42,659 nucleotides of DNA from a phage. The notes under the pieces were generated by a model, which worked only from the letters and a program-made list of their open reading frames with translations, did not search any database and was not told where the DNA came from. Of the stretch, positions 3,999-28,086 are shown in pieces. The stretch is taken from sequence record PZ386954.1, one strand, 5' to 3'. The first letter of the stretch is position 1; every line of letters begins with the position of its first letter. The translations under genes and the position numbers were made by a program.

Positions 3999-4194
3999 GG
4001 GTATCCGAAAGCTGAGGCAATGAACAGGCCGTGGGTGCAATACCCCGGCTTGAAAATTGACTATTTGTACGTGCCCCTCCCTCGACCCAAATGACCGCGC
4101 GTACCCCCATGACGTGTGCGCGGTTTAGCCTCGCGACGTGCGCGGTATTGTCTCGCGTGCGCTGCGCGGCGCGTCGAAAGGATTGCCTGCGTTC

Positions 4195-4600
4195 GGTATA
4201 GCTCGTGCGTGTCGCGTTTCATCGTCTGCCGTGTGGCGTGCTGTGCGCTGTCCTGCTGGCTGTGCTGTGTGCCTGCTGTGTGGGCTATCGGTGGCGGTGT
4301 GGTGCTGTCCTGTGGGGACGCTCTGCGCTGGCTGTGCGGTGCTGTGCGCTGCGCGTGGTCGGGCGGGTATCTGTCTCTTTTCGTGGCGCGGCGTGGTGCT
4401 GTGTGGTGGCGGTGGTGGCGGTGGTGCTGTCCTGTCTGCTGGTCTACTGTCTGCGCCTCCAGCTCTGCGCGTCATGCTCTGCTCCTGTCTGTCACCTGTC
4501 CTACTGCCTTCACGTTCTGCCGTCTGTCAGTCCTACGGCCTGCCATCCGTCATCCGTTCGGCGCTCGCTTGTTTCGGCTGCGCCGCGCTCGCTCTGCGTA
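4195..4600 (+). repeat. non-coding, extremely A-depleted (G/T/C-only) tract with short degenerate repeats (GCTGTGCG, GGTGGCGGTGGTG, CTGTC); probable genome-terminus or terminal-repeat region
   Basis: by direct count only 4 A residues in 4201-4440; overlapping ORFs in all frames here are low-complexity composition artefacts. Confidence 0.7.
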
Positions 4601-4605
4601 TCTAG

Positions 4606-4634
4606 CGATACTATATCACTATAGACACTTTCAT
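4606..4634 (+). promoter_or_regulatory. conserved element CGATACTATATCACTATAGACACTTTCAT; contains TCACTATAG identical to T7 promoter -8..+1; inverted near-identical copy at 25549-25580
   Basis: TCACTATAG at 4616-4624; about 130 bp upstream of the first sigma70 promoter, a T7 phiOL-like position. Confidence 0.45.
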
Positions 4635-4760
4635 TTACTTATTGATTTATAAGGATTTATTTACTGTATTCAATCGGTATTCTATCCAGTGTTAGGATTA
4701 TCTAATCAAACTTTAATCCTAATGATTACAGTAACTTATCACTTTTCTTGAAAATAATAC

Positions 4761-4789
4761 TTGCAAAGGTATTCGGTATTTGCTGTAAT
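4761..4789 (+). promoter_or_regulatory. sigma70-type early promoter P1 (TTGCAA-N17-TGcTGTAAT)
   Basis: -35 TTGCAA 4761-4766, 17-bp spacer, extended -10 TGc + TGTAAT 4784-4789, AT-rich upstream (AAAATAATAC). Confidence 0.7.
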
Positions 4790-4866
4790 TCATCTCGCCG
4801 GACAACACAGCGTCAACGTGTTGGACGGTGTAGGACGGTAACACTGCTCTTTAACAATCTGGTGTG

Positions 4867-4895
4867 TTGACAAGGCAAGCTCACTATGCTGTAAT
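4867..4895 (+). promoter_or_regulatory. sigma70-type early promoter P2 (TTGACA-N17-TGcTGTAAT)
   Basis: -35 TTGACA 4867-4872, 17-bp spacer, TGcTGTAAT ending 4895. Confidence 0.75.
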
Positions 4896-5004
4896 GCTTC
4901 CACGTCAGCCAGACAAGCCAAATAGTGATGGATAAACACGTTAACACCCACGCAGGCTAACTGGTACGGTTTAATTAACTCTGAACGGGCGCTGATTAAA
5001 TCGG

Positions 5005-5033
5005 TTGACAGGATGAAACGAGTATGCTGTAAT
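5005..5033 (+). promoter_or_regulatory. sigma70-type early promoter P3 (TTGACA-N17-TGcTGTAAT)
   Basis: -35 TTGACA 5005-5010, 17-bp spacer, TGTAAT 5028-5033. Confidence 0.75.
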
Positions 5034-5085
5034 ACACACCAGATTGACAGGGCAGCAAGCCAGTCAGTCAGAAGTAAAAAGGTAG

Positions 5086-5114
5086 TTGACAAGCTGAATA
5101 CGATGTGATGTAAT
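5086..5114 (+). promoter_or_regulatory. sigma70-type early promoter P4 (TTGACA-N17-TGaTGTAAT)
   Basis: -35 TTGACA 5086-5091, 17-bp spacer, TGTAAT 5109-5114. Confidence 0.75.
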
Positions 5115-5570
5115 CAGCACCGAGTTGAAAGGATGGAAAGCATCCTGCTCTGAGTGAACGCAAACTGGCCGCGTAGTGTCACGGCTCACTGGGTATCCGC
5201 CGCAGGTTGGAACTGGGTGAGGCATCGCCGAAAGGCAACGGTATCGCAACAATGCTAACGCCGTAGGGGTAGCGCCTGATGCAAGGTAACGGAGAAGCGC
5301 GATAGACGCAGCGCAGTATCAGCACAATACCAAACGTCTTATAAGGCGCGGAGTGAAGCGGGTAGGTAGGCAAGCTGGTAACGGTGAGCCGGACTGCTGG
5401 AGGACTCCTGAGAGTGGATGCAGACAATATCCACGGCGCGAAATGGGCGGGGCGATTTTTCAGGGTAGTGAATCCGACAAGCCAATCAATGCCAACGAGT
5501 GCAGACTGTACGGCGCGTCACAATGGGTTCACTATCCACCTGAAAATAGCCAACAACTGGAGAAATTAAT

Positions 5571-5960
5571 ATGTACCGTATCTATGCAAGCGCATATCGT
5601 CAGGGCAACGCTGAGTCAGTCAATCTGGCGCTTCATTGCAAGGCACTGCGAACGGTGCAGGACATGTTCGGAGTGGTTCCGGTCACACTGACAGGCAAGT
5701 TCGACAATGCGTATGAGTTAAGCATGGTCTTCCCTGTCGATGGAATCTACGAAATCCGACAGGCTGTTAAGCTGTTTTGTAAAGCCTTCGAACAGGACTG
5801 CATCATGGTAGTGACCAAAGACGACGATGCAATCTTCATGGACTCACCGTATCCGGGTAAGCCTGCTGGCAAGCTGGTCAGCAAGACTAACGAGGAAATG
5901 GAAGCCGGGCAGCATACCGCTTGGACTTACGATGGTGAGCAATTTTGGGTAGTGGAGTAA
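5571..5960 (+). CDS. first early protein (129 aa), function unknown
   Basis: ATG with GGAG Shine-Dalgarno; first ORF downstream of the early promoter cluster. Confidence 0.65.
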   Translation: MYRIYASAYRQGNAESVNLALHCKALRTVQDMFGVVPVTLTGKFDNAYELSMVFPVDGIYEIRQAVKLFCKAFEQDCIMVVTKDDDAIFMDSPYPGKPAGKLVSKTNEEMEAGQHTAWTYDGEQFWVVE

Positions 5961-6133
5961 GGAGCATGACTATGTTCACTGCACTGTGTGTTATTGCGGC
6001 GGCGTGTTGGGTTATTGACCAGCGCCTGCCTAAGCGAGCCTGATATGTGGGACTTACTGGTAGCGTTATTCTGGTTCGTCTTTGCAGGCTTGTGGATTTA
6101 CTGGCTGACTCGTCCCAAATTATGGTGACTGCC

Positions 6134-6157
6134 TAATGCGTCTTGCGAGGCGCATTG
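6134..6157 (+). other. intergenic RNA hairpin, 8-bp stem, loop TTGCGA (UGCG tetraloop if closed by U-A)
   Basis: AATGCGTC / TTGCGA / GGCGCATT inverted repeat; no downstream U-tract. Confidence 0.55.
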
Positions 6158-6192
6158 TGAAGTAACCAACCAACAACCCGACGAGGTGTATC

Positions 6193-6720
6193 ATGACTAC
6201 TGTTAAATATACTGCATTCAAAGACGCTGCCGCTCTGGACAAGGCCATTGAGTCTACCGTCAAGAAGGCGCACTCACTGCGTACCGACATCCAGAACGTT
6301 GCTGTCGGCATCATCCTGCACGCTTACCATCACGGCGACTACACTCGTGCTGAATCCTTCGTGAATCAGCTCGGTCAGGGTGTCCGTGGCAAGGCGCTGG
6401 TAGACTGGTTCGTCAAGTTCGGCGGCCTGATTATCGGTGAGAACGGCGGGAAACAGGGTTTCATTGGCTGGCAGGGCGCTGAGTATATCAAGGCGAACAT
6501 TGACACGGCCAAAGCCACTATGTGGTGGAGCCTGAAACCGGAGCAGACCTTCGAAGGCTTCGACCTGCAAGATGCGCTCGAAAAGCTGATTGCCAAAGCT
6601 GAGAAGGCGCTGAACAAGGCCAATGAGCTGCGTCACGAAGGCAAGGACGAAGACGCGAACAAGGTAGTGGTGCCGCAGAACGTCCTCGACCTGCTGCGCA
6701 AGGCTAAACAGGCTGCCTAA
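6193..6720 (+). CDS. early protein (175 aa), C-terminal coiled-coil-like region, function unknown
   Basis: ATG with GAGG SD; follows conserved hairpin. Confidence 0.65.
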   Translation: MTTVKYTAFKDAAALDKAIESTVKKAHSLRTDIQNVAVGIILHAYHHGDYTRAESFVNQLGQGVRGKALVDWFVKFGGLIIGENGGKQGFIGWQGAEYIKANIDTAKATMWWSLKPEQTFEGFDLQDALEKLIAKAEKALNKANELRHEGKDEDANKVVVPQNVLDLLRKAKQAA

Positions 6721-6795
6721 GCGGGATTGACTCAAGCCAGTGTCAAGGCGCTGGCTTTATGGCAATTCTGCCCCAACCTATTCGGAGTATTACCC

Positions 6796-7077
6796 ATGAC
6801 TATCAAAACTGTAACTGCATTCGTGACCAAGAAAGCTGGCGAACTGTATGGCTTCGCTGTTTCCCTGAACGAAGGCCAGTACCTGCACCACGTCCGTGAA
6901 GAAGGCGAGCCGACTGAGGCCGTAGCCATCCTCGAAACGTTGCAGGGTATCCCGCTGCCGCACGAGTTCATCATCATGCTCGCTGAGCAGGACGAAGACG
7001 ACCTGCGACTGCGCCACGGTGACGACCTGACGATTGAAGAAATCGGCACGTTCGAAGCAGAAGTAGACGACGAGTAA
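6796..7077 (+). CDS. small acidic early protein (93 aa)
   Basis: ATG at 6796 with GGAG SD 8 nt upstream (track ORF 6727 begins at TTG); D/E-rich, C-terminal EAEVDDE. Confidence 0.6.
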   Translation: MTIKTVTAFVTKKAGELYGFAVSLNEGQYLHHVREEGEPTEAVAILETLQGIPLPHEFIIMLAEQDEDDLRLRHGDDLTIEEIGTFEAEVDDE

Positions 7078-26520: not shown

Positions 26521-28086
26521 ATGACTCAAGACGCGCAGAACGTCAGCTATGAGTCTCTGTGGCAGAAGTACCGGGATAGCAACGTTGTCACCAAAGCGCG
26601 GGAATACAGCCGCTATACACTGGCCAAGCTGGTGAGCGAGTATGACCGCAGTGACGTGGACGACATGAACCGCCAGCAGATTACTCGTGATTACCAGTCT
26701 GTCGGCGCTCTGCTCGTCAACAACCTAGTTGCCAAACTGGGTGAGTTCCTGTTCCCGGCTTCCGCTCGATTCGTGAAGCTGAAATTAAACAAGGTGTCTG
26801 ACCAACAGCGGCAGTCTATGTCGCAAGTTAATCAGGCGCTTATCACTATTGAAAAGGCCATCGTAGACAAAGCCAAAGAGAATGGCGGCTACGCTGACCT
26901 GCTCCAAGCAATTGCCCAACAAGCTGTGACCGGAAACGCCGCGCTGTACCGCGATATGGAAACTGGTTCGTACCGAGTGTACGGATTGGAATCCTTCGTG
27001 GTGCAGCGCGACGGTCGTGGCGTTGTGGTGGATGCTATCGTGAAGGAGCGCATCCAGTGGGATTCTCTGCCCAAGGACTTTCAGAATGAACTGAACTCCA
27101 AAGGCTTCCGCTGCGGTGGGAACAAACGCGTATGGCTGTACACTCGTGTGCTCCGCGTCCAGAAGGACAGTGGCACGTACGGCTATGAAATCACGCAGCA
27201 GATTGGTAACTACCAAGGTTGCGTCTATACCCCCGGTAAGGATTACTACCCTGAAAAAGTCTGCCCATGGTTATTCCCAGTGTGGTCTTTGAAGTCTGGC
27301 GAGCATTACGGTCGCGGGATTGTCGAAGACCACGCTGGGGATTTCGCACGTCTGTCCATGCTGTCTGAGCACTCAGCTCTGTACATGCAGGAAGCGCTGC
27401 GCGTGCTGTGGATGCTCACTGGTTCTGGCGGCAACGTCGATGACATTGAGAGCGCAGAGACTGGTCAGGTCATTCCACTCCAGAACGGCACATCGCTGTC
27501 CGGCTTGGAGGTCGGGGATTACCAGAAAGTTCAACAGGCCCGTGACGAAATCAACCAGATTGTGCAGCGACTGGCGCAAGCCTTCATGTACACTGGCGAG
27601 TTCCGTGACTCCGAACGTACCACCGCCACCGAAGTGCAGCAGGTAGCAACCAGCGCCGAACGTGGGCTGGGTGGCCCGTACTCAATGCAGGCTAAGACCC
27701 TCCAGATTCCTCTGGCGTACGTCCTGCTCGCGGAGATTGACGAGTCCACCGTACCTGACATCGTAGGCAATATCCTGTCGCTTCAAGTTGAAGCTGGTCT
27801 GGATGCCCTCGGTCGCAGCATTGAAGCAGAGACGCTGATTCGTGCGCTCTCTGACTCGCAGGCAGCAATGGTTGCTGTCCAAAATATTAATGGCGTTGCT
27901 AACACCATCGACCCACAGAAAGTCCTTGAGGTTATCTTCGCATCCAACGGTGTTGCGCTTGACGACTATCGTAAGTCGGCACAAGACTTGGCCCAAGAAG
28001 GGCAGGCCATCGACAATGCAGCGCAGGCTGCCGCAGGCGTTCAGCCGGGCGCGGTCGATGTAGCGCCTAACATCGCACAGATTTAA
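26521..28086 (+). CDS. portal (head-tail connector) protein
   Basis: 521 aa; position and size match T7 gp8-class portals; precedes scaffold and capsid. Confidence 0.85.
   Translation: MTQDAQNVSYESLWQKYRDSNVVTKAREYSRYTLAKLVSEYDRSDVDDMNRQQITRDYQSVGALLVNNLVAKLGEFLFPASARFVKLKLNKVSDQQRQSMSQVNQALITIEKAIVDKAKENGGYADLLQAIAQQAVTGNAALYRDMETGSYRVYGLESFVVQRDGRGVVVDAIVKERIQWDSLPKDFQNELNSKGFRCGGNKRVWLYTRVLRVQKDSGTYGYEITQQIGNYQGCVYTPGKDYYPEKVCPWLFPVWSLKSGEHYGRGIVEDHAGDFARLSMLSEHSALYMQEALRVLWMLTGSGGNVDDIESAETGQVIPLQNGTSLSGLEVGDYQKVQQARDEINQIVQRLAQAFMYTGEFRDSERTTATEVQQVATSAERGLGGPYSMQAKTLQIPLAYVLLAEIDESTVPDIVGNILSLQVEAGLDALGRSIEAETLIRALSDSQAAMVAVQNINGVANTIDPQKVLEVIFASNGVALDDYRKSAQDLAQEGQAIDNAAQAAAGVQPGAVDVAPNIAQI

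Follow-up and report, generated by a model that had tools for sequence, protein, structure and literature searches.

A long structured RNA heads the first early transcript

The early mRNA that encodes S-adenosylmethionine (SAM) lyase in a Bonnellvirus begins with a conserved, structured and non-coding leader RNA of ~450 nucleotides (nt), which occupies positions 5120-5570 of the stretch of DNA analysed here (the window, 42,659 nt). The window is a circularly permuted Bonnellvirus genome of 42.7 kb, from a phiKMV-like coliphage of the T7 supergroup (Autographivirales, Stentvirinae). Its nearest relative in GenBank is Escherichia phage aldrigsur (92% identity across 4600-6000), and alignment with phage J8-65 places the physical left end of the genome at about window position 4085, with the terminal repeat after it. 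The leader separates gene 1 from a tandem of four early promoters. The -10 element of the last promoter ends at 5114 and its transcript would start, judging from the sequence, near 5120-5122; the first open reading frame (ORF) that carries a Shine-Dalgarno (SD) sequence is gene 1 itself, with GGAG at 5560-5563 and the ATG at 5571. The unusually long interval of ~450 nt that a first-pass annotation of the window had pointed out between the early promoters and the first gene is thus real, and it is arranged as follows:

5120..5570, + strand: whole structured leader RNA, made of a clade-specific 5′ domain (5120-5221), a core (5222-5551) and a linker with the ribosome-binding site; homologues, covariation and strand-specific folding
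5571..5960, + strand: gene 1, a SAM lyase of 129 amino acids (anti-restriction 'SAMase'); Pfam PF23780, E = 1.4e-27, and annotation of relatives

The leader does not code for protein

Several ORFs can be drawn through the leader, namely a 61-residue ORF that starts with GTG (5384-5569), a 112-residue GTG ORF in another frame that overlaps gene 1 (5353-5691) and an 82-residue TTG ORF on the minus strand, and reading frames of 61 to 112 codons could be taken to mean that the stretch is an unannotated or degraded coding region. None of the drawn ORFs has support. The leaders of relatives differ by insertions and deletions, among them some of 25 and 5 nt, whose lengths are not divisible by three, as well as by the exchange of whole modules, so that the drawn ORFs are broken in close relatives. 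Variable sites were spread over the three phases in the leader (44/44/52), with no codon periodicity, versus a concentration at third positions in gene 1 (16/13/54). On the basis of the frame-breaking indels and the flat phase distribution the protein-coding reading was rejected. In agreement with the first-pass annotation, which had seen no convincing ORF in 5115-5570, and with the 16 related GenBank records, none of which annotates a coding sequence inside the leader, we conclude that the region is not coding. A mere spacer with chance hairpins fares no better, given the plentiful compensatory changes that preserve the helices and a conservation above that of the neighbouring gene 1 (both described below), and either explanation, coding or chance, is essentially excluded.

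Covariation across two genera supports a common fold

The fold was examined in 24 distinct homologous leaders. These include 13 Bonnellviruses and LIMEzero from GenBank, three IMG/VR contigs (L022, L028 and L151) and six Logan/ENA contigs (L161, L163, L164, L165, L166 and L168); 13 further GenBank Bonnellvirus records lie outside the 24, and the metagenome contig L153 was used only in the alignment of the whole leader (A3, 19 sequences). In this whole-leader alignment, 94.2% of the cells were paired versus 32-37% in slid controls, 31 pairs showed compensatory change versus 1-8, and the covariation score was 0.18 versus 0.03-0.04. Results were similar for the core (window 5219-5573), where all 24 sequences could be compared: 95.0% of the cells were paired versus 33-39% in slid controls, with 26 pairs showing compensatory change versus 5-10 and a covariation score of 0.156 versus 0.025-0.045. 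The structured 5′-UTR that the first-pass annotation had suggested, and for which it had proposed this very comparison with homologous regions, is therefore strongly supported.

The signal is specific to one strand. When the leader was folded against dinucleotide shuffles, the + strand gave z = -2.4, with none of 100 shuffles as good, versus z = +0.25 for the - strand. G-U wobbles on the + strand are numerous among the pairs, which fits an RNA transcribed from that strand.

Sequence conservation points the same way. The core of the window is 67% identical to that of LIMEzero over 285 aligned nt, versus 49.6% nucleotide and 27% amino acid identity for gene 1. Among 14 Bonnellviruses, mean identity was 96.9% for P9, the last helix of the core, and 94.8% for P6; the segments of gene 1 ranged from 90.2 to 94.9%, all below P9. 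On these sequence comparisons, the leader RNA is constrained at least as much as the adjacent protein, and its core has been retained across two genera while the neighbouring anti-restriction gene diverged far more.

An all-against-all search of column pairs for tertiary or pseudoknot contacts was uninformative, being dominated by the split into two clades; a helix-level filter on the column pairs returned the known helices and P3 only. An internal-repeat search found no second copy of any leader element within the window.

The 5′ domain is clade-specific

The 5′ domain, ~105 nt in the window, differs between the two clades, and homology between the window and LIMEzero-type leaders was detected with nhmmer only from about leader position 154 on. 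Three elements were recognised in it:

5130..5146, + strand: hairpin P2, AGGAUG-GAAAG-CAUCCU; compensatory changes in four of six pairs, 94.7% of cells paired
5158..5181, + strand: P3 (5158-5161 / 5171-5174) and a candidate H-type pseudoknot stem (5166-5169 / 5178-5181); covariation in Bonnellviruses
5185..5221, + strand: irregular hairpin P4, CUCACUGGGUAUCCGCC / GGUUGGAACUGGGUGAG; 15 pairs, five with compensatory changes among Bonnellviruses

P2 contains the hairpin GGATG-GAAAG-CATCC that had been noticed in the bare sequence at 5131-5145. It was found at exactly these coordinates (GGATG 5131-5135, GAAAG 5136-5140, CATCC 5141-5145), its stem is lengthened by A5130-U5146, and it is upheld by compensatory changes; the pair 5133:5143, for instance, is A-U in eight sequences, U-A in eight and G-C in three. 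P3 and the pseudoknot stem were 100% paired in 15 distinct Bonnellvirus sequences versus 12-50% in slid controls, with two compensatory changes, present in 7 and 4 of the 15 sequences. Since this amounts to one covarying pair per stem, we only tentatively assign a small H-type pseudoknot to 5158-5181. LIMEzero-type leaders carry a different hairpin at the place of P4, and their 5′-domain hairpins covary among themselves; the leader of contig L164 has a version of its own, seen in this single sequence.

The core combines a constant scaffold with exchangeable modules

The core (P5-P9, 5222-5551) measures ~330 nt in the window. Its first three domains contain the following elements:

5222..5282, + strand: P5 domain, with closing stem 5222-5226 / 5278-5282; compensatory changes from U-A to C-G and from C-G to U-A
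5227-5236, + strand: GNRA hairpin of P5, GCC-GAAA-GGC
5238-5262, + strand: optional 25-nt insert (hairpin) of P5, present or absent among close relatives
5266-5277, + strand: conserved element of P5, GGGUAGCGCC; GGGUAGYGCC kept in both genera
5285..5331, + strand: P6 hairpin domain, with a GGUA/UACC closing stem, an inner GCGCG/CAGCGC stem and a conserved GAUAGAC loop
5335..5449, + strand: central multi-branch domain, closed by P7 (5335-5339 / 5445-5449) and P8 (5346-5349 / 5436-5439)
5373-5387, + strand: conserved AGCUGGUAACGGUGA in the central domain
5414-5419 / 5429-5434, + strand: hairpin of the central domain, in which GUGGAU/AUCCAC becomes GUGAGU/ACUCAC

P6 was 100% paired in the 24 sequences and three of its four closing pairs covary (G-C, C-G and U-A types). 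P7 was likewise 100% paired, with U-G, U-A and C-G variation, and P8 was paired in 83% overall, with compensatory changes at three of four pairs. The inserts of the central domain are interchangeable and non-homologous: three versions occur in otherwise near-identical Bonnellviruses and a fourth in the LIMEzero type, and the closing pairs of the domain are preserved by compensatory changes despite the replacement of what they enclose.

The breakpoints of the central inserts (window 5350-5435; L013, L015, L016, L153, L002, L014 and L010) and of the 25-nt insert fall at helix boundaries. From the sequences, this exchange looks like recombinational shuffling of RNA structural modules, and interchangeable modules in a conserved scaffold provide a case of RNA domain shuffling in nature.

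The core ends in a long hairpin next to an open ribosome-binding site

The 3′ end of the core is formed by P9, which is followed directly by the ribosome-binding site:

5451..5551, + strand: P9, long irregular hairpin of ~100 nt at the 3′ end of the core; covariation in 24 sequences
5552..5570, + strand: A/C-rich linker with the SD sequence GGAG (5560-5563); GCCAAC(A)AACUGGAGA kept in both genera

From its base upward, P9 consists of GGC/GCC, an 8-bp stem (5457-5464 / 5539-5546) and a 3-nt bulge on the 3′ side (CCA), followed by an 11-bp stem (5465-5475 / 5525-5535), a 5-nt bulge on the 3′ side (ACAAU), GAC/GUC, GCC/GGC and a variable tip. The two main stems (8 + 11 bp) were 100% paired in the 24 sequences, with compensatory changes in 9 of the 19 pairs, and a covariance model of P9 had a single match in the window (5450-5553, 114 bits). 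The hairpin ends 20 nt upstream of the ribosome-binding site, and its 3-nt bulge lies 32-34 nt before the ATG.

The T-run near 5455 that the first-pass annotation had mentioned is present at 5456-5460 and turned out to be the 5′ strand of the lower helix of P9, not a termination signal. Four of its five T's lie in the lower stem, facing CCUGAAAA at 5539-5546, and U5456-A5547 is a possible ninth pair. A terminator scan found no terminator-like site in 4362-7000 and no hairpin followed by a U-run near 5455. An intrinsic terminator at the T-run was rejected, as no terminator features adjoin it and the U-run is paired with 5539-5546 in 24 of 24 sequences.

Quantification of the predicted full-length ensemble showed that the SD sequence is mostly unpaired (unpaired probability 0.6-1.0). 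RNAalifold proposed a helix, P1, that would close the whole leader by pairing 5120-5127 with 5554-5560. We regard it as doubtful because it shows no compensatory change and the SD sequence is open in the ensemble; among relatives, its 5′ strand was not seen in the L164 sequence and L163 has a G-A mismatch.

These features bear on the idea that the leader is a sensor, whether a riboswitch or an operator that responds to a protein, and adjusts transcriptional read-through or translation of SAM lyase in response to a ligand, such as SAM or a product of SAM lyase, or to an early protein. Linkage to SAM lyase is kept across two genera though the proteins are only 27% identical, the junctions and loops are highly conserved, and in LIMEzero-type leaders a 5′ CCGGU has two possible partners, a local GCCGG and the AACUGG at the SD sequence. 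An expression platform was looked for and did not appear: there is no terminator-like site, the SD sequence is predicted to be mostly unpaired, and P1 lacks covariation and is not conserved in L164 and L163. No Rfam riboswitch matched, even at E <= 10, and in contig L151 another ORF parts the RNA from the SAM-lyase gene. The SAM-I aptamer measures ~110 nt, and the core is about three times that size. We therefore consider a sensor improbable.

P9 may be a processing site comparable to T7 R0.3

We propose that the leader acts in cis as the structured head of the early mRNA, with a compact, G-rich and protective fold, and that P9 serves for processing or recognition, most likely by ribonuclease (RNase) III; we give this reading a probability of about 0.45. 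Host RNA polymerase starting at the last of the four tandem promoters would first make ~450 nt of untranslated RNA, which would fold into compact, G-rich helices (P2-P9) and so be less exposed to Rho-dependent termination and to attack by RNases. P9 would end the leader 20 nt upstream of the unpaired, A/C-rich ribosome-binding site and would be the functional equivalent of T7 R0.3, a double-stranded element for processing or protein recognition, with RNase III as its most likely partner. It would free the SAM-lyase message from the leader and enable efficient, immediate translation of the anti-restriction enzyme. Resistance to Rho and RNases, cleavage by RNase III at P9 and the effect on translation are what we infer from this arrangement.

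The closest parallel is the early leader of T7. Cleavage by RNase III is documented for T7 R0.3. In the T7 record, an irregular hairpin of the leader lies upstream of the gene 0.3 ATG at 925, and we take it to be the R0.3 site in the T7 map of Dunn and Studier, where cleavage falls near position 890 in an internal loop ~35 nt before the ATG. Like the window, T7 has host promoters in tandem at its left genome end, the identical boxA (GCUCUUUAACAAUCUGG) and an untranslated structured leader with an irregular hairpin ~30-35 nt upstream of its first, anti-restriction gene. P9 has the general form of such a site, with an irregular helix of more than 20 bp in which the 8- and 11-bp stems flank a 3-nt bulge ~30 nt upstream of the ATG. 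In contrast, the T7 leader after promoter A3 is ~175 nt long with one main hairpin, versus ~450 nt, at least nine helices and a core shared across genera here, and boxA precedes most of the promoters in the window, unlike in T7, where it follows all A promoters. A search of T7 positions 1-1500 with the P9 covariance model returned nothing at E <= 10. The suggestion of the first-pass annotation that the stretch might contain an RNA processing site is thus plausible for P9, by its place and general form, without homology to the T7 site.

A second parallel is the PL leader of the lambda N gene, which contains nutL (boxA/boxB) and a structure sensitive to RNase III, and whose processing modulates translation of N. 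In lambda, the sequence between NutL and the SD sequence of N is highly structured (PMC5725501), so that, as in the window, a long structured leader separates a boxA-containing site from the SD sequence of the first early gene. The lambda leader differs in being ~220 nt long and in working with N protein and boxB; in the window leader the Rfam search was negative and no boxB/N system or homology was found. The window shares with T7 and with the lambda N leader a plan of host promoters, a Nus-factor site, a structured leader and a first anti-host gene. Beside the structured early leaders known from T7-like and lambdoid phages, this one is a new and greatly enlarged variant, set apart by its scale of ~450 nt and at least nine covariation-supported helices.

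The base composition of the leader fits the protective part of the proposal. Rut sites, at which Rho loads, are pyrimidine-rich and G-poor (PMC5725501), and long untranslated RNAs are targets of Rho unless protected (PMC7665894). The C/G ratio is 0.53-0.90 across 4970-5500, so this G-rich leader should be a poor substrate for Rho loading.

Several observations weigh against a cis-acting leader that ends in an RNase III site. The bulges of P9 (ACAAU, YCR) and many of its stem positions are conserved beyond what pairing needs, which points away from the largely sequence-tolerant RNase III and to another, specific partner, and P9 has neither sequence nor structure homology to the left end of T7. 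Upstream of it stand ~330 nt of elaborate covarying structure, in excess of what a processing site or protection from Rho needs. P1, the helix that would join the 5′ end to the SD sequence, lacks support, and the thermodynamic signal of the LIMEzero leader is weak (z = -0.68 against shuffles). The central domain accepts wholesale replacement of modules and P6, P7 and P9 do not, a pattern that fits a functional core. The size and intricacy of this core, the conservation of its bulges and loops and a conservation above that of the gene are left unexplained by a cis-acting leader, and for this reason three other readings are kept alive: the sensor discussed above, a trans-acting RNA and a put-like RNA.

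A released, trans-acting RNA is a less likely alternative

The first of these further readings is that the leader gives rise to a functional RNA, probably after release from the mRNA. Its folded core would bind a protein of host or phage when infection begins and work in trans as a sponge, decoy or takeover factor; possible targets are a defence that senses or depends on RNA, an RNase, and the machinery of transcription or translation. Of the long RNAs, the leader is the first to be made from the last early promoter, with four promoters in tandem ahead of it, and loops and bulges of its core are conserved (GGGUAGYGCC, GAUAGAC, AGCUGGYAACGGUGA and ACAAU). The core is more strongly conserved than the adjacent gene, its complexity goes beyond the needs of known leaders, and the SD sequence is apparently not governed by the fold. 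On the other side, there is no terminator or independent 3′ end, in all members checked the RNA is physically joined to the beginning of the SAM-lyase cistron, or to that of a small ORF followed by SAM lyase, and neither a similar RNA or locus to mimic in E. coli genomes nor a candidate partner was found. We hold this reading to be unlikely, though it deserves serious consideration.

A small RNA had also been among the possibilities raised from the bare sequence. As a separate gene it is unsupported: the leader has a promoter of its own, no terminator follows, and the RNA runs into gene 1. Release of a leader fragment is possible, with a 3′ end that could be made by processing at P9.

GOLLD and ROOL RNAs are likewise hundreds of nt long, intricately structured, carried by phages and obscure in function (PMC12286853). 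They are free-standing RNA genes of 600-800 nt from other phage and host groups and are present in Rfam, in contrast to the Bonnellvirus RNA, which is an mRNA leader with no Rfam match. A bolder form of the trans-acting reading is that the core (~330 nt) represents a new class of large phage RNA with a defined tertiary structure, which is released and acts on a host target within the first seconds of infection; we consider this slightly less likely still. Its target would be a defence sensor, an RNase, RNA polymerase or the ribosome, and the released core would then be the RNA counterpart of the first-expressed protein anti-defence factors of T7-like phages, Ocr and SAM lyase. The phages that carry the leader are coliphages easily grown on E. 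coli K-12, so that a trans-acting anti-host RNA is directly testable, as are processing, control of translation, protection from Rho and antitermination.

Four tandem promoters and a boxA precede the leader

A pattern search identified four promoter-like sites of the form TTGACA-N14-TGnTGTAAT (sigma-70-type), all on the + strand, versus 0.15 sites expected by chance in the whole window; at least four sites occurred in none of 100 shuffles. Together with the boxA they are ordered as follows:

4761..4789, + strand: first early promoter, TTGCAA-N14-TGCTGTAAT; pattern search, two mismatches; kept in relatives
4845..4857, + strand: boxA of the E. coli rrn type, TGCTCTTTAACAA, with a boxC-like GUGUGUUG after it, the element lying within 4843-4866; exact match
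4867..4895, + strand: second early promoter, TTGACA-N14-TGCTGTAAT; exact pattern match
5005..5033, + strand: third early promoter; exact pattern match
5086..5114, + strand: fourth and last early promoter; exact pattern match

All four promoters share the extended -10 element TGnTGTAAT, which has G at position 2 of the hexamer instead of the near-invariant A of the consensus. A standard consensus scan returned no promoter whatsoever because of this G. The spacer of the fourth promoter, AGCTGAATAC, recurs in a promoter of Cronobacter phage Dev-CD-23823.

The boxA lies downstream of the first promoter, upstream of the other three and outside the leader. Its core, GCTCTTTAACAATCTG (4846-4861), was invariant in 17 of 17 aligned phages, and the 17-mer that T7 shares lies in the T7 leader between A3 and the gene 0.3 hairpin, downstream of all three A promoters. 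No boxA was found within 5115-5570; the sole other match in the window, at up to two mismatches, is at 26711. From its position, boxA would be carried only by transcripts from the first promoter. Because it follows the first promoter and precedes the other three, we treat it as context and not as part of the leader.

This arrangement resembles that of rrn leaders, and of CRISPR arrays, which also use the boxA Nus complex: an exact rrn boxA stands upstream of a long, G-rich, structured and untranslated RNA. Nus complexes guard long non-coding RNAs from Rho or aid their folding (PMC5725501, PMC7665894). Unlike the rrn case, the leader has no similarity to rRNA or to other E. coli sequence, and only the transcripts of the first promoter would carry boxA.

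It also recalls the put RNAs of phage HK022, which are cis-acting structured RNAs just downstream of phage early promoters. The leader might, like them, let host RNA polymerase resist termination and speed it through the early region. Its location immediately downstream of all early promoters would suit this, as would the boxA that precedes three of the four, the T7 boxA downstream of all three A promoters, and P9 as a long stem with conserved bulges. The put RNAs are small, ~70 nt with two stem-loops, versus ~450 nt for the leader, and the two were compared by description only, with no demonstrated similarity. The strict adjacency of the leader to the ribosome-binding site would go unexplained. 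A put-like role is accordingly quite improbable. The same holds for its extension to genome entry, which rests on the transit of polymerase through the early region also drawing the genome into the cell in T7-like phages.

The leader was found in two genera only and matches no catalogued RNA family

The subfamily Stentvirinae consists of exactly two genera, Bonnellvirus and Waewaevirus (LIMEzero), and the leader was found in both, in phage and metagenome sequences. Wherever its flanks were examined, it stands immediately between the last promoter and the SAM-lyase gene, with L151 as the exception. In this LIMEzero-like IMG/VR contig a 45-codon ORF (L151:5568-5706) separates the leader from the SAM-lyase gene, the two ORFs overlapping at a TAATG junction. 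The intervening ORF suggests that the RNA is tied to the first translation start and not strictly to the start codon of SAM lyase.

When the leaders of the window and of LIMEzero were compared by blastn with 50,697 phage records, only 22 records matched, all from Bonnellvirus or LIMEzero. Two independent motif scans of IMG/VR and one each of JGI metagenomes and GTDB genomes returned members of the two clades and otherwise chance hits, and a loose 14-base pattern scan gave ~120 chance loci and no members beyond four already known. Blastn against 5,426 E. coli genomes found no match to the leader, which argues against obvious mimicry of a host RNA or locus. Rfam 15, whose families include riboswitches, ribozymes, RNase P, tmRNA, 6S RNA, leaders and GOLLD/ROOL, gave no match at E <= 10 in 4000-7000; in a search of 5100-5590 the sole hit was an archaeal C/D snoRNA, at 9.7 bits versus a gathering score of 45, which we attribute to chance. 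The leader is not described in the Bonnellvirus, J8-65 and phage structured-RNA literature searched. In a catalogue of 10,006 viral candidate RNAs the motifs measure 29-151 nt only, and a P9-like fragment could be among them. By sequence and structure the leader is a new RNA family, and a well-supported one to add to RNA-structure databases.

Other phages with long early leaders were compared as well. Nhmmer detected no homology to the leader in the long leaders of Melnykvirinae phages, RSB1 or T7, and the P9 covariance model found nothing in T7, RSB1 or four Melnykvirinae phages. Members of the Melnykvirinae, a related subfamily (Cronobacter phage Dev-CD-23823, a Salmonella phage, Aeromonas phage LAh4 and Klebsiella phage K59PH2), show the same layout, in that a non-coding gap of 480-545 nt with promoters precedes their homologue of window gene 2:

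L156:933-1461, L157:1993-2473, L158:1848-2392 and L159:1848-2392: Melnykvirinae gaps

The leader of Dev-CD-23823 folds with z = -3.2 and has a predicted 26-bp hairpin just before the SD sequence. Such leaders may represent an analogous or very distant class.

Neighbouring genes and database records

The homologues of gene 1 (window 5571-5960) are named 'SAM-dependent methyltransferase' in several GenBank and RefSeq records (NC_025445, PV660458, NC_015585 and NC_029070); on a gene assigned to Pfam S-AdoMet_lyase, this label is probably a mis-annotation. A metagenome contig of 42,657 bp (L023 and L170, IMGVR_UViG_2751185941_000001) has both ends inside the leader, so that the permuted assembly is broken within the structured RNA. 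The contig and the window encode gene 1 products of 100% identity, and the leader segment of L023 is aldrigsur-like, not identical to the window.

Upstream of the promoters, the region 4116-4600 is G+C-rich with an extreme strand bias of A versus T (AT skew -0.26 for 4001-5000) and corresponds to the left end of J8-65 with its terminal repeat. The long ORFs that several records place within this region (for example ROV85 gp21-22, forsur_28 and HHU8) are probably spurious. Downstream, the 232-nt gap between genes 1 and 2 contains a short hydrophobic ORF at 5962-6045 (…MFTALCVIAAACWVIDQRLPKRA), whose start region, ATGTTYACYGCACTGTGTGT, is retained in most relatives and which is left unannotated in the records that have feature tables there. 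A further small ORF lies in the same gap at 5988-6128.

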